From IMG/VR virus record IMGVR_UViG_2565956719_000002: a stretch of DNA of 64,000 nucleotides; one strand, written 5' to 3'. Both the position numbers and the translations under genes were made by a program. Within the stretch, counting starts at the first letter, position 1; each line of letters starts with the position of its first letter. This document shows, piece by piece, positions 16,970 through 19,831 of the stretch. The stretch comes from a virus. Its lineage: Duplodnaviria; Heunggongvirae; Uroviricota; Caudoviricetes. Below the pieces are notes generated by a model. That model did no database searches. It was not told where the DNA came from and was given only the letters and a program-made list of their open reading frames with translations.

Positions 16970-16986
16970 AGATTTATTAGAGCAAT
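16970..16986 (-). promoter_or_regulatory. C1 operator-like site (ATTGCTCTAATAAATCT, 16/17)
   Basis: motif match upstream of the small peptide / ASCH operon. Confidence 0.55.
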
Positions 16987-17492
16987 TATTGTTGATGTAG
17001 AAGCGCGTTTTCATACTCCCTGACCATTAACGTAAGTACGCCGTGACTCCTGAAAACACGCGCCACTTCAATCTTATCTTCCAGCGCGAACGCAATTTTA
17101 CTTAGACCAATTTTCTTCAGGAGATCAATCTTTGCTGGACCGTCATTTCTGTCATCGGTGGCAGGACGCATAGATAGCAAAGGCTCCGCCCCATTTGTTA
17201 CGTGCTTACGCAACCAGGCTCGTGTTTTATCCCTGGCTATCTCACAGCGCCCGGTTACAAACCAGAGGGTGTAAATGCCGGACAACTGGCGCACCATATC
17301 AATAACTGGAGTGATGGGAGCATCAGTGTCACAGGCAAGGTTAAACTCGTTCCAGTGCTCTGTTAATGCACCTTTGCCAGGTGGTGGAAGTAAATGCAGC
17401 CTGTCTTCCGTTGCCTCTGATATCGTCCCATCAATATCTACTATGACGATGTACGGACGTTCCTGGTGTGCGTGTTTATTGAAAATACTCAA
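16986..17492 (-). CDS. HAD-family phosphatase-like protein (168 aa)
   Basis: IVIVDIDGTIS (DxDGT motif I). Confidence 0.5.
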   Translation of the reverse strand: MSIFNKHAHQERPYIVIVDIDGTISEATEDRLHLLPPPGKGALTEHWNEFNLACDTDAPITPVIDMVRQLSGIYTLWFVTGRCEIARDKTRAWLRKHVTNGAEPLLSMRPATDDRNDGPAKIDLLKKIGLSKIAFALEDKIEVARVFRSHGVLTLMVREYENALLHQQ

Positions 17493-17565
17493 ATGCCCTC
17501 CTCATTGGACGAAAAAAAATGCTGGTGGGAGCACTCCACCAGCATTAAAAGTGACACTGTAACTA

Positions 17566-18828
17566 TCAGCGAACGTAAATAGTGCCGCCGTTCTCTTTTT
17601 CCCATGCATCGCTACGTGCATAGCAAACATCGAGAAGTCTTCTTGCCGCAGTTTCCTCTAAACCCAATTCGACAACCAACTGCTCATGACGGCGGGTAAC
17701 CACATCAAACAGGGTATGCAGCCCTTTAGTTGCCAGATCATCAATGAATTCCGGTTCGAACGGCAGCTCTGCATCTGCCAACATAACCTCTTGCGCCCAC
17801 TCAACTCGACGGACCAATTCCGGGCGACGGCTTTCCATCTCTTTACAGATCAATTCATGGAAGAACTCTACCCAACCTTCCGGCTGGAACTCGCGGAAAA
17901 TTGCCAACGGCTGGAAGTTTGGCATCAACCATTCGTTGATTCGGATATCAATGGCATAGCCCATGTCGCAGCAGAACTGATAAGCAAAGTCCAGCTTAGA
18001 AACGATATAAGGACGCTCGTTATTGAACTCTTTAGGCGATGAGATCCCATAAGCCAGGAGGCGCGGGAAGAAGGAGATTTGCCCTAACGTCGGATGAAGT
18101 TTGCTTGCAGGGAAACGGCGCTCAGTAATGCCATACATTTCCTTCTTGAGCGTCGCAAATTTGGCATTCTCATTAACCAGCGCGGTAACCTCTGCTTTTT
18201 TATTAGCAAATGCCACGCGCGCCTCGCTTGCATCTTTAATAGTTTTTTTGAGCTGTTGGTTAAGGTCGGCGACCTGCTTACGCAGTTCCTGTCGCTCGCT
18301 TTTAGCTTTGTTATAGCGTTTCTCAAGGTTAAAAGGATCAAGTTTCATGATCTCTTTATATTGAGATTTTAGCGTTGAAATCTGTGAGTTCCGCAGTTCA
18401 ACCATCGCAGTCATTTCATTGAGTTTTGTTTCCAGCTCAATGCTTATACGTTCGGCATTATCAGCACGCTGGTTGGCGTCATGCGTCGCATCGTCGATCG
18501 CGTCCTGTTGCTGGCGTTTCAAATGTTCAATTTGCAGCTGAAGCTCTTCAATTTCTTTACCCTTCAGACCGAGATCCAACTGCATATTTTCAGCTGCATC
18601 TACCAGGGAGTTATGGCTATCAGCTTCTGCGTTATAAACATCAATAAGCTGTGCGTGAAGCATCTCCGCTGACTGAACCGCATTATCAAAAAAACGCGCT
18701 GTGAGGTCATCACAACTAACGCGGCGTTGCGCGGCCCGGATGTTCTGGATAATGGCCGGGATACCGGCATTCAGGACGTCAGGGATAGATACATTTTCGA
18801 TTGATTGTTTTTGTGCTGAAGTGCTCAT
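17566..18828 (-). CDS. hypothetical protein (420 aa): N-terminal coiled coil plus unknown C-terminal domain
   Basis: long ORF; heptad-rich segment about aa 60-230; no recognisable catalytic motif. Confidence 0.55.
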   Translation of the reverse strand: MSTSAQKQSIENVSIPDVLNAGIPAIIQNIRAAQRRVSCDDLTARFFDNAVQSAEMLHAQLIDVYNAEADSHNSLVDAAENMQLDLGLKGKEIEELQLQIEHLKRQQQDAIDDATHDANQRADNAERISIELETKLNEMTAMVELRNSQISTLKSQYKEIMKLDPFNLEKRYNKAKSERQELRKQVADLNQQLKKTIKDASEARVAFANKKAEVTALVNENAKFATLKKEMYGITERRFPASKLHPTLGQISFFPRLLAYGISSPKEFNNERPYIVSKLDFAYQFCCDMGYAIDIRINEWLMPNFQPLAIFREFQPEGWVEFFHELICKEMESRRPELVRRVEWAQEVMLADAELPFEPEFIDDLATKGLHTLFDVVTRRHEQLVVELGLEETAARRLLDVCYARSDAWEKENGGTIYVR

Positions 18829-18829
18829 T

Positions 18830-19048
18830 TCAAAGTTCCGTATTAGCTTGTGCTTCGGTCATTTTTCCTAAGTATGAAGGAGGAAGGACTACGCAATTTG
18901 TATCCAGTCCCTCACCTATGGCAGCCTGTAAAATTCTGGCTAAGGTGAGTCTCTTGTTGCGATACCTGGTGATGACATGCCTGATACCGCCGGTCGGCGT
19001 AACAAAGGCGATCAGCCAGTAGTGATATTTCCGTCGGAATGGCCACAT
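18830..19048 (-). CDS. hypothetical protein (72 aa)
   Basis: coupled to the 420-aa ORF (2-nt gap). Confidence 0.4.
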   Translation of the reverse strand: MWPFRRKYHYWLIAFVTPTGGIRHVITRYRNKRLTLARILQAAIGEGLDTNCVVLPPSYLGKMTEAQANTEL

Positions 19049-19062
19049 AGTGCACCTTGTAG

Positions 19063-19079
19063 ATTGCTCTAATAAAAAA
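19063..19079 (+). promoter_or_regulatory. C1 operator-like site (ATTGCTCTAATAAAAAA, 14/17)
   Basis: one arm of an inverted operator pair flanking a hairpin. Confidence 0.45.
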
Positions 19080-19106
19080 CGTGATGAGTGTACATCACGT
19101 TTTAAA
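19079..19106 (-). terminator. hairpin AACGTGATG-AGTGTAC-CATCACGTT with flanking A/T runs
   Basis: 9-bp perfect stem followed by a T-run on both strands; sits after the stop of the 19130-22678 operon. Confidence 0.5.
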
Positions 19107-19111
19107 AATAT

Positions 19112-19128
19112 GGAATTATTAGAGCAAT
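19112..19128 (-). promoter_or_regulatory. C1 operator-like site (ATTGCTCTAATAATTCC, 13/17)
   Basis: second arm of the inverted operator pair. Confidence 0.4.
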
Positions 19129-19129
19129 A

Positions 19130-19831
19130 TTATTCTGATTCTCGCTCAAAAAATGAGCTGATAAGGGGAAGCCAATCCTCTGACACTTCGCGAGGTCGCG
19201 GTTTGCCGTGGAAAAAGATTATTCGGCAGTCTTTTGGTAATGCCCCATTCCCCCTGGAGTAACGCGCGCTCGCATATTTTGAACCAGGTTCCACAACATC
19301 GGCCTTGTAACTTACAAACCATCCTGGATACAGATCCTGAAATGCTGGTGTATCATCGCCCATAACCTTTCGTAAGAACCCCTGGTCACCCCAGCACTCA
19401 GTAGTGACACAACGAGAAATCCAACCTTCCGGATCTTGCCAGAATGAACTCCAGATATGCGCTTTAACACTATTTGGTATCCACAGGGCACCGCTGCCAC
19501 GATATTGTGGATGGTAAAAATCCCTAAGCATGGTGAAGCTGGTTGGTGGATGCTCTAGGATTGGGCGTATATCACCGGCAATAACCGTGTCCAAATCCAG
19601 ATAGAACAGATCATCGGTTATATCCGGTCGGAACAACTCGATTTTCGCCCACCAGCCACGGCACTTTTGCCACTGGTTGATCAATGGGACAACTTTGACG
19701 CCAGGTACATGTAAACGCTTCAGGTCTGTCAGGCAAATAATTTCATAGCCTTTTGGCAGTTGATTAACCAGCCACTGCACATCGGAAGCGTTATAGTCAC
19801 CACCAGAGCGAAAAACTAAAGCAATCTTCAT
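19130..19831 (-). CDS. putative glycosyltransferase-like protein (DxD motif)
   Basis: [11 protein letters not shown] DxD-type motif; assignment tentative. Confidence 0.4.

Follow-up and report, generated by a model that had tools for sequence, protein, structure and literature searches.

The 64,000-nucleotide stretch of IMG/VR virus record IMGVR_UViG_2565956719_000002 (here called the window, to which all positions refer unless another locus is named) carries, as judged from its sequence, the pmgR-pmgS-pap segment of a P1-type phage-plasmid together with its known C1 operators. The locus is already annotated in P1 and is therefore not the undescribed system that an initial annotation, made from the DNA alone, had taken it to be. 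We consider the best joint explanation, with a probability of roughly 0.6, to be that pmgR and pmgS are early genes repressed by C1, that PmgS is an accessory factor in DNA transactions, that PmgR is non-structural, and that Pap is a PNKP-type phosphatase. New here are the PmgS family (at least 98 clusters), its predicted architecture with a C-terminal domain of two helix-hairpin-helix units, denoted (HhH)2, and its early gene context beside RecT, exonuclease, and methylase genes outside the P1/D6-like elements.

A P1-type pmgR-pmgS-pap locus

Three open reading frames (ORFs) are encoded on the minus strand, exactly where the initial annotation had placed them, and code for proteins of 72 amino acids (aa) (18830-19048), 420 aa (17566-18828), and 168 aa (16986-17492, with a TTG start and the motif VDIDGT). 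These match P1 PmgR at 72/72, PmgS at 418/420, and Pap at 160/168 residues (100%, 99.5%, and 95%, respectively), and nucleotide identity is 97 to 99% over 2.5 kb to P1, P7, RCS47, SJ46, JL22, and other punaviruses. The locus also agrees with P1 in gene order, strand, gene lengths, operators, and the flanking pmgQ and ppp genes (ppp being a lambda-type phosphatase gene; both upstream of pmgR), and the cassette itself differs from P1 by point changes only. Record AF234172 of P1 names the genes pmgR, pmgS, and pap and the sites OpmgRa and OpmgRb (formerly Op86a and Op86b) and OpmgT (formerly Op88), and all three operators are at their annotated positions in the window; the P7 names are shtA, shtB, and pap. 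Annotation of both genes and operators is available in the P1 genome records AF234172/AF234173, and a 2022 study described the knockouts (PMC9024508). The pmgR and pmgS genes are also among 21 extremely conserved genes across 77 P1-like phage-plasmids (PMC9603915). The pmgS ATG lies one base past the pmgR stop codon (TGAAATG), and the two genes are translationally coupled.

C1 operators and transcription signals

A search of the whole window with the P1 operator consensus ATTGCTCTAATAAATTT, allowing at most 3 mismatches, finds 12 operator-like 17-mers where 0.25 are expected from shuffled sequence (0 of 100 shuffles reached 12). Three of these are the sites to which the initial annotation had drawn attention at 16970, 19063, and 19112, and they match P1 Op88, Op86b, and Op86a. 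Op86a (OpmgRa; 19112-19128, minus strand, 3 mismatches) coincides with a protein_bind feature of AF234172 that carries the comment "controls expression of pmgR and pmgS," and it overlaps the -35 box of the predicted sigma-70 promoter PpmgR (19099-19127, minus strand; -35 at 19122-19127 and -10 at 19099-19104). PpmgR is itself a prediction in the P1 record, transferred here with an offset of 12800, and was missed by a simple consensus scan of the window. Op86b (OpmgRb; 19063-19079, plus strand, 3 mismatches) is downstream of the predicted transcription start and inverted relative to Op86a.

Between the two operators, fold and sequence reading place a hairpin with an 11-bp stem (19076-19103), and the 86-nucleotide (nt) stretch folded here has an energy of -26.9 kcal/mol (z = -6.1), a stability reached by 0 of 200 shuffles, in agreement with the inverted pair around a hairpin described in the initial annotation. 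On the minus strand this hairpin is followed by a T-run just past the pmgQ stop codon, so that it probably terminates the ppp-pmgQ operon upstream. The range 16900-19200 contains no late-promoter -22 box (AAGTTACTT, at most 1 mismatch); palindromic copies occur elsewhere in the window. Repressor control, as originally suggested, is thus borne out by the Op86a entry of the P1 record and by the lack of a late-promoter box in the region. C1 would keep pmgR and pmgS off in the plasmid prophage, with transcription occurring early after induction or infection.

An intrinsic terminator in the pmgS/pap gap (17510-17546, minus strand) consists of an 11-bp stem (17546-17518) with 6 G-C pairs followed by T8, and only ~17 nt separate it from the pap start, a gap in which no pap-specific promoter was found. 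Since a strong terminator precedes pap at so short a distance, the simplest reading is that pap would be reached only by terminator read-through. Op88 (OpmgT; 16970-16986, minus strand, 1 mismatch) shares sequence with the stop codon of pap and with the -35 boxes of both predicted pmgT promoters, which in the P1 record fire away from pmgR-pmgS-pap, and this operator belongs to the next, downstream operon. The operators therefore do not bracket a single unit.

We note separately that palindromic AAGTNACTT boxes at 43317, 47659, 50280, 59631, and 62715 match the -22 element of LPhot, an annotated late promoter of P1. The LPhot -22 pattern has 21 matches in the window compared with 12 expected, and none is in the pmgR-pmgS-pap region.

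Predicted architecture of PmgS

The product of pmgS is predicted to combine a coiled coil, a beta-rich domain, and a C-terminal (HhH)2 domain. AlphaFold models the full-length protein with helices at residues 41-160 and 168-232 (predicted local distance difference test [pLDDT] 72, predicted template modeling score [pTM] 0.40), which is consistent with the long coiled coil recognized earlier, and models the C-terminal half with higher scores (pLDDT 80, pTM 0.76). The predicted structure of the C-terminal domain is a five-helix fold with two helix-hairpin-helix units that resembles the N-terminal domain of RAD51C. A 44-sequence alignment of PmgS relatives gives the order as a conserved N-terminal helix, a long helix, a turn at P165, a second long helix, the beta-rich domain, an HPxLxxRxxWA helix, and the HhH region. 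P165, within an LxxLxPxxLKxK turn, is conserved in at least 90% of the 44 sequences, and the HhH motif reads KGIGxxTA in most members and LGLEE in P1. The HHH_5 family is matched by 12 of the 44, and matches of the PmgS family profile to the PDB are weak (E = 0.046 to 0.3).

Across the family, helix 1 has a median charge of -9 and helix 2 one of +3.5, and this pairing of an acidic with a basic helix fits an antiparallel coiled-coil arm. PmgS is acidic overall (pI 5.3, which is also the family median), and its (HhH)2 domain is approximately neutral across the family and carries a charge of -7 in P1. Helix 1 probably pairs with helix 2 in an antiparallel coiled coil that turns at the nearly invariant P165. 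The arm so formed would place the N-terminal helix next to the beta-rich domain and the (HhH)2 domain, the three making up a "head" with DNA or a DNA-processing protein as its binding partner, and in this way PmgS would assist or protect replication and recombination intermediates.

Both parts of this architecture have counterparts in known proteins. Antiparallel arms of SMC and Rad50 proteins likewise have two long helices with a conserved turn, and PmgS has weak coiled-coil profile matches to them; in contrast to SMC and Rad50, PmgS has neither an ATPase head nor Walker motifs, and GxxxxGK[ST] is absent from its sequence. Domains of the (HhH)2 type are found in the RAD51/RAD51C N-terminus, the NusA acidic repeats, and the C-terminal domain (CTD) of the RNA polymerase alpha subunit, and in PmgS the domain is attached to the coiled coil and the beta-rich domain. 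The P1 copy differs from these in being acidic and in having a degenerate second hairpin.

Membership of PmgS in the LmuB, SMC, or Rad50 families was considered and rejected, as the PADLOC and NCBIfam matches are sub-threshold (15 to 19 bits against cut-offs of 300 to 1000) and cover the coiled coil only.

The PmgS family and its gene neighborhoods

Close relatives of PmgS are present only in P1-like contigs, together with a single relative of 27% identity. When the C-terminal 196 residues are used in an exhaustive profile search, 98 clusters at 50% identity are recovered, nearly all of them proteins of 350 to 470 aa with the domain at the C-terminus. A later profile search gives 378 clusters at 90% identity, which among the best-scoring matches listed are mainly Aeromonas chromosomal (presumably prophage) proteins; the named members are all "hypothetical" or "RNA polymerase alpha CTD domain-containing."

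We examined 24 non-redundant loci and scanned 113 neighboring proteins. The PmgS-like gene of smaller temperate phages and integrated prophages is in the early region and lacks an accompanying PmgR, with hosts including Yersinia, Brenneria, Pectobacterium, Vibrio, Aeromonas, and probably Pseudomonas. In six lineages the gene comes immediately after one for a YqaJ/RecE-like exonuclease, in four of which RecT precedes the exonuclease, and other neighbors code for RecT with a PDDEXK nuclease, Rv2179c-like 3'-5' exonucleases, MT-A70, Dam, and Dcm methylases, RdgC, DUF2303, and VRR-NUC proteins. Neither structural genes nor a Gam homologue are found among the 113 neighbors, and a literature search for a described coiled-coil/HhH protein adjoining RecT found nothing. 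The nucleic-acid link contained in the initial guess of an accessory function fits these neighborhoods.

The arrangement recalls the lambda Red and Rac RecET modules, as the distant PmgS relatives occupy the same early operon immediately after RecT and a YqaJ/RecE-like exonuclease. It differs in that PmgS has no homology to the accessory protein Gam (no Pfam, PHROG, or structural match), and in P1-like elements no RecT or exonuclease gene was seen adjoining the gene. A live alternative is that PmgS takes the place of Gam as an early inhibitor or decoy directed against a host nuclease or an SMC-type defense (RecBCD, SbcCD, Lamassu, or Wadjet). Its position after RecT-exonuclease pairs that lack a Gam family protein among their neighbors would fit such a role, as would early repressor-controlled expression, the acidic pI, the weak coiled-coil matches to SMC, Rad50, and LmuB profiles, and the C-terminal -AA of many family members, a possible degradation tag suited to a transient regulator; the role would also explain how a gene so strongly conserved across 77 P1-like plasmids is dispensable in Escherichia coli K-12. 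We regard it as quite unlikely, since PmgS resembles neither Gam, Abc2, nor known anti-defense proteins in sequence or fold, the SMC and LmuB matches score well under the family thresholds and are limited to the coiled coil, and a pmgS deletion mutant is restricted normally by type I systems.

The C-termini of 74 full-length PmgS cluster representatives end in -AA in 27, in VA in 3 more, and in AG in 2, and P1 PmgS ends in IYVR. The -AA ends resemble an ssrA-type C-terminal degradation signal.

Two ORFs near pmgS in the window also recur near its distant homologues. A PmgT-like 242-aa protein (phrog_874; 16063-16791, minus strand) is found again two genes downstream of distant PmgS homologues in unrelated prophages (locus L032, 6546-7208, and locus L040, 6548-7180), and 4 of the 113 neighboring proteins match phrog_874. 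A 67-aa ORF (15776-15979, minus strand) has a clear homologue in locus L061 (4777-4962), immediately upstream of a distant PmgS-like gene and just past a Dcm methylase gene. One of the 113 neighbors has a weak ASCH-domain match.

Mutant phenotypes and virion composition

The 72-aa product of pmgR, originally listed as being of unknown function, has a demonstrated phenotype in that it is essential for infectious P1 virions (PMC9024508). An in-frame pmgR deletion (Gonzales et al. 2022) yields <10^2 plaque-forming units (PFU)/ml, with tails and incomplete heads that are not joined, and is complemented in trans (PMC9024508); a pacA packaging mutant in the same study also has proheads and complete tails (PMC9024508). 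Because the pmgR knockout resembles the packaging mutant, PmgR is probably a non-structural factor in packaging or head completion. PmgR homologues are nearly confined to 80- to 100-kb P1/D6-like elements, where they are encoded immediately upstream of pmgS, often overlapping its start, even when PmgS identity is 27%.

By comparison, pmgS and pap deletion mutants give infectious phage with normal plating and behave normally on EcoA, EcoB, and EcoK hosts (PMC9024508), which argues against a role in counteracting type I restriction. A CRISPR interference survey likewise scores pmgS and pap as non-essential, with an efficiency of plating of 1.2 on pmgS knock-down (PMC10695390). A 2026 cryo-electron microscopy study of P1, which states that almost all head-to-tail proteins are identified, describes a connector of portal Prt, adaptor PmgC, and stopper gp7 joined to terminator gp24 (PMC12810830). 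PmgR, PmgS, and Pap are missing from its protein list, the head, connector, tail, and baseplate being accounted for by other proteins, and the name PmgR does not occur in its text (PMC12810830). PmgS is also unmentioned in the main text of the P1 virion proteome paper (PMC9024508), in which the major capsid protein is reported to have its own 120-residue N-terminal segment that is cleaved (PMC9024508).

A preprint on SPARDA (short Argonaute) systems places pmgS among the P1 regions enriched in small guide RNAs during infection (10.1101/2023.06.08.544223).

Roles of PmgR and PmgS

Because deletion and knock-down of pmgS are tolerated and PmgS is not listed in the virion papers, we read PmgS as non-structural, and because its distant relatives adjoin RecT, exonucleases, and methylases we read it as DNA-related. 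PmgS would thus be neither a virion nor a scaffold protein, acting rather as an early accessory to DNA transactions or to the enzymes performing them, and PmgR would probably be non-structural as well and serve packaging or head completion.

The main rival explanation is that PmgR and PmgS form a morphogenetic pair, for instance a scaffold or assembly chaperone that serves head completion or the sheath. The names given to these proteins all point this way, including "putative morphogenetic function" in P1, ShtA/ShtB ("sheath") in P7, "putative prohead scaffolding protein" in D6, and the PHROG 1660 family matched by PmgS, "PmgS-like head morphogenesis." Loss of PmgR leaves heads and tails unjoined, every P1/D6-like lineage examined has pmgR and pmgS side by side and coupled, scaffolding proteins typically have long acidic coiled coils, and a scaffold or chaperone would be missing from mature virions in any case. 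We nevertheless find this explanation unlikely. Infectious virions are made without pmgS and neither its deletion nor its knock-down causes a plating defect, its promoter is of the sigma-70 type under C1 control with no late-promoter box, and in smaller temperate phages the relatives of PmgS are encoded in early regions of recombination and methylase genes, well away from structural genes and in the absence of PmgR. The family also carries an (HhH)2 domain, and by analogy with HK97-type delta domains the cleaved N-terminal segment of the P1 capsid protein could itself serve as scaffold. The initial annotation had named clear homology of the 420-aa protein to a P1 morphogenetic protein as evidence against an unfamiliar function; that homology formally exists, as the protein is 99.5% identical to P1 PmgS, and the morphogenetic label is a placeholder. 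The label "PmgS-like head morphogenesis" looks unfounded, and the gene neighbors point to DNA transactions instead.

Several considerations weigh against PmgS as a factor in DNA transactions. The gene neighborhood is circumstantial. PmgS has no significant Pfam match and no match to a curated family, and its beta-rich domain matches no known fold (Foldseek against BFVD gives nothing at E <= 0.001). The second HhH hairpin of P1 PmgS is degenerate (LGLEE) and its (HhH)2 domain is acidic, which fits protein binding, as by the NusA acidic repeats, better than DNA binding, and the antiparallel arm derives from a monomer model of moderate confidence (pLDDT 72, pTM 0.40). That pmgS is so tightly coupled to pmgR, an essential gene of morphogenesis, throughout the P1/D6-like elements could just as well mean an assembly role. 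Two P1 RNA sequencing papers gave no usable timing for pmgR, pmgS, or pap.

Taking PmgS as an early DNA-transaction factor one step further, we tentatively suggest that it is the founder of an uncharacterized and mislabeled family, widespread in temperate phages of Gammaproteobacteria, whose members, with a coiled-coil arm and an (HhH)2 head, may act at an early stage, either on intermediates of recombination or replication or on the host enzymes attacking these. In P1-type elements PmgS would have become coupled to PmgR, the essential role of which may be to make DNA packageable rather than to build the head-tail joint.

Pap and the PNKP phosphatase family

The pap gene has a strong Shine-Dalgarno sequence (GAGGAGGG) ahead of its TTG start, and its product has DIDGT at residues 18 to 22. 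The HAD signature noted initially is thus well founded, and Pap matches the Pfam family PF25109 (HAD_PNKP) at 44.1 bits against a gathering cut-off of 27.6 (E = 3e-11), as well as the PHROG "polynucleotide kinase" families phrog_415 (E = 5.7e-56) and phrog_505. A search of solved structures gives one related match, a weak one, to Pnkp1 (4xrp, E = 0.036). Relatives in 1164 phage records (e.g., T1-like phages, Klebsiella siphoviruses, and RB49) are short stand-alone proteins. On these profile matches we class Pap as an ordinary member of a known family, a PNKP-type HAD phosphatase that stands alone. It shares with the PNKP phosphatase domain (PF25109, T4 PseT type) the DxDGT signature with the motif I nucleophile aspartate and an above-cut-off profile score, and differs in lacking a kinase domain. 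Of the ORFs surrounding pap that were examined, none was recognized as an RNA ligase gene.

A bifunctional kinase-phosphatase was rejected as an identity for Pap, which at 168 aa matches no kinase domain in Pfam or NCBIfam; the relative in RB49 is likewise short and stand-alone.

It is highly improbable that the three genes form one operator-bracketed system for nucleic-acid end processing or exclusion, as initially envisaged. In its favor, all three genes run co-linearly on the same strand between operators, Pap is a member of the PNKP phosphatase family, and PmgS has a predicted (HhH)2 domain. A terminator separates pmgS from pap, though, Op88 serves the next operon, the three knockouts differ in phenotype, and Pap relatives occur alone in more than 1000 unrelated phages. 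Conservation of the gene neighborhood is also divided: pmgR and pmgS stay together throughout the P1/D6-like lineages examined, whereas linkage to pap breaks beyond the closest P1 relatives. Outside of the group at >=95% identity to P1, pap was seen only in locus L004, with an extra gene between, and it is absent from locus L003 and from D6. No pap adjoins the PmgS relative of 27% identity.

Flanking regions

Upstream of pmgR, at 19130-20520 (minus strand), pmgQ matches a PHROG "glycosyltransferase" family and ppp codes for a lambda-type metallophosphatase. With ppp upstream and pap downstream, the pmgR-pmgS pair is thus flanked by two different phosphatase genes.

Past Op88 the window departs from P1, with lambdoid Stx-phage-like genes replacing most of the P1 pmgT-pmgV block, which is one of the variable regions of P1-like phage-plasmids (PMC9603915). 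The 13500-16800 segment is a mosaic that corresponds to this published variable region (PMC9603915); ~0.9 kb matches P1 pmgT and the rest matches Shiga toxin (Stx)/lambdoid phages and phage Ro157c2YLVW, including ead/Ea22-like and DUF4752 genes. The first ORF downstream of the Op88-controlled promoters codes for a strongly hydrophobic 28-aa product, MNTAFKIIMAAIYFWLFSITFGGIVAHG (16801-16887, minus strand), with the Shine-Dalgarno sequence AGGAG. A "membrane protein" feature of SJ46 may correspond to this ORF. It is unannotated in AF234172. Between Op88 and this ORF is a terminator-like hairpin (16915-16937, plus strand) with an 8-bp stem followed by TTTTATTTT; on the minus strand it would fall in the leader of transcripts from the pmgT promoters.

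Implications

The value of these findings is largely corrective, in that the label "PmgS-like head morphogenesis" is spreading in phage annotation and is unsupported by genetics, virion structure, or gene context. P1-like phage-plasmids, in which PmgS is among the most conserved genes, are vehicles of extended-spectrum beta-lactamase (ESBL) and mcr-1 resistance genes. The function of PmgS and the reason why PmgR is essential, given that PmgR is not among the modeled virion proteins, would fill gaps in one of the oldest model phages.

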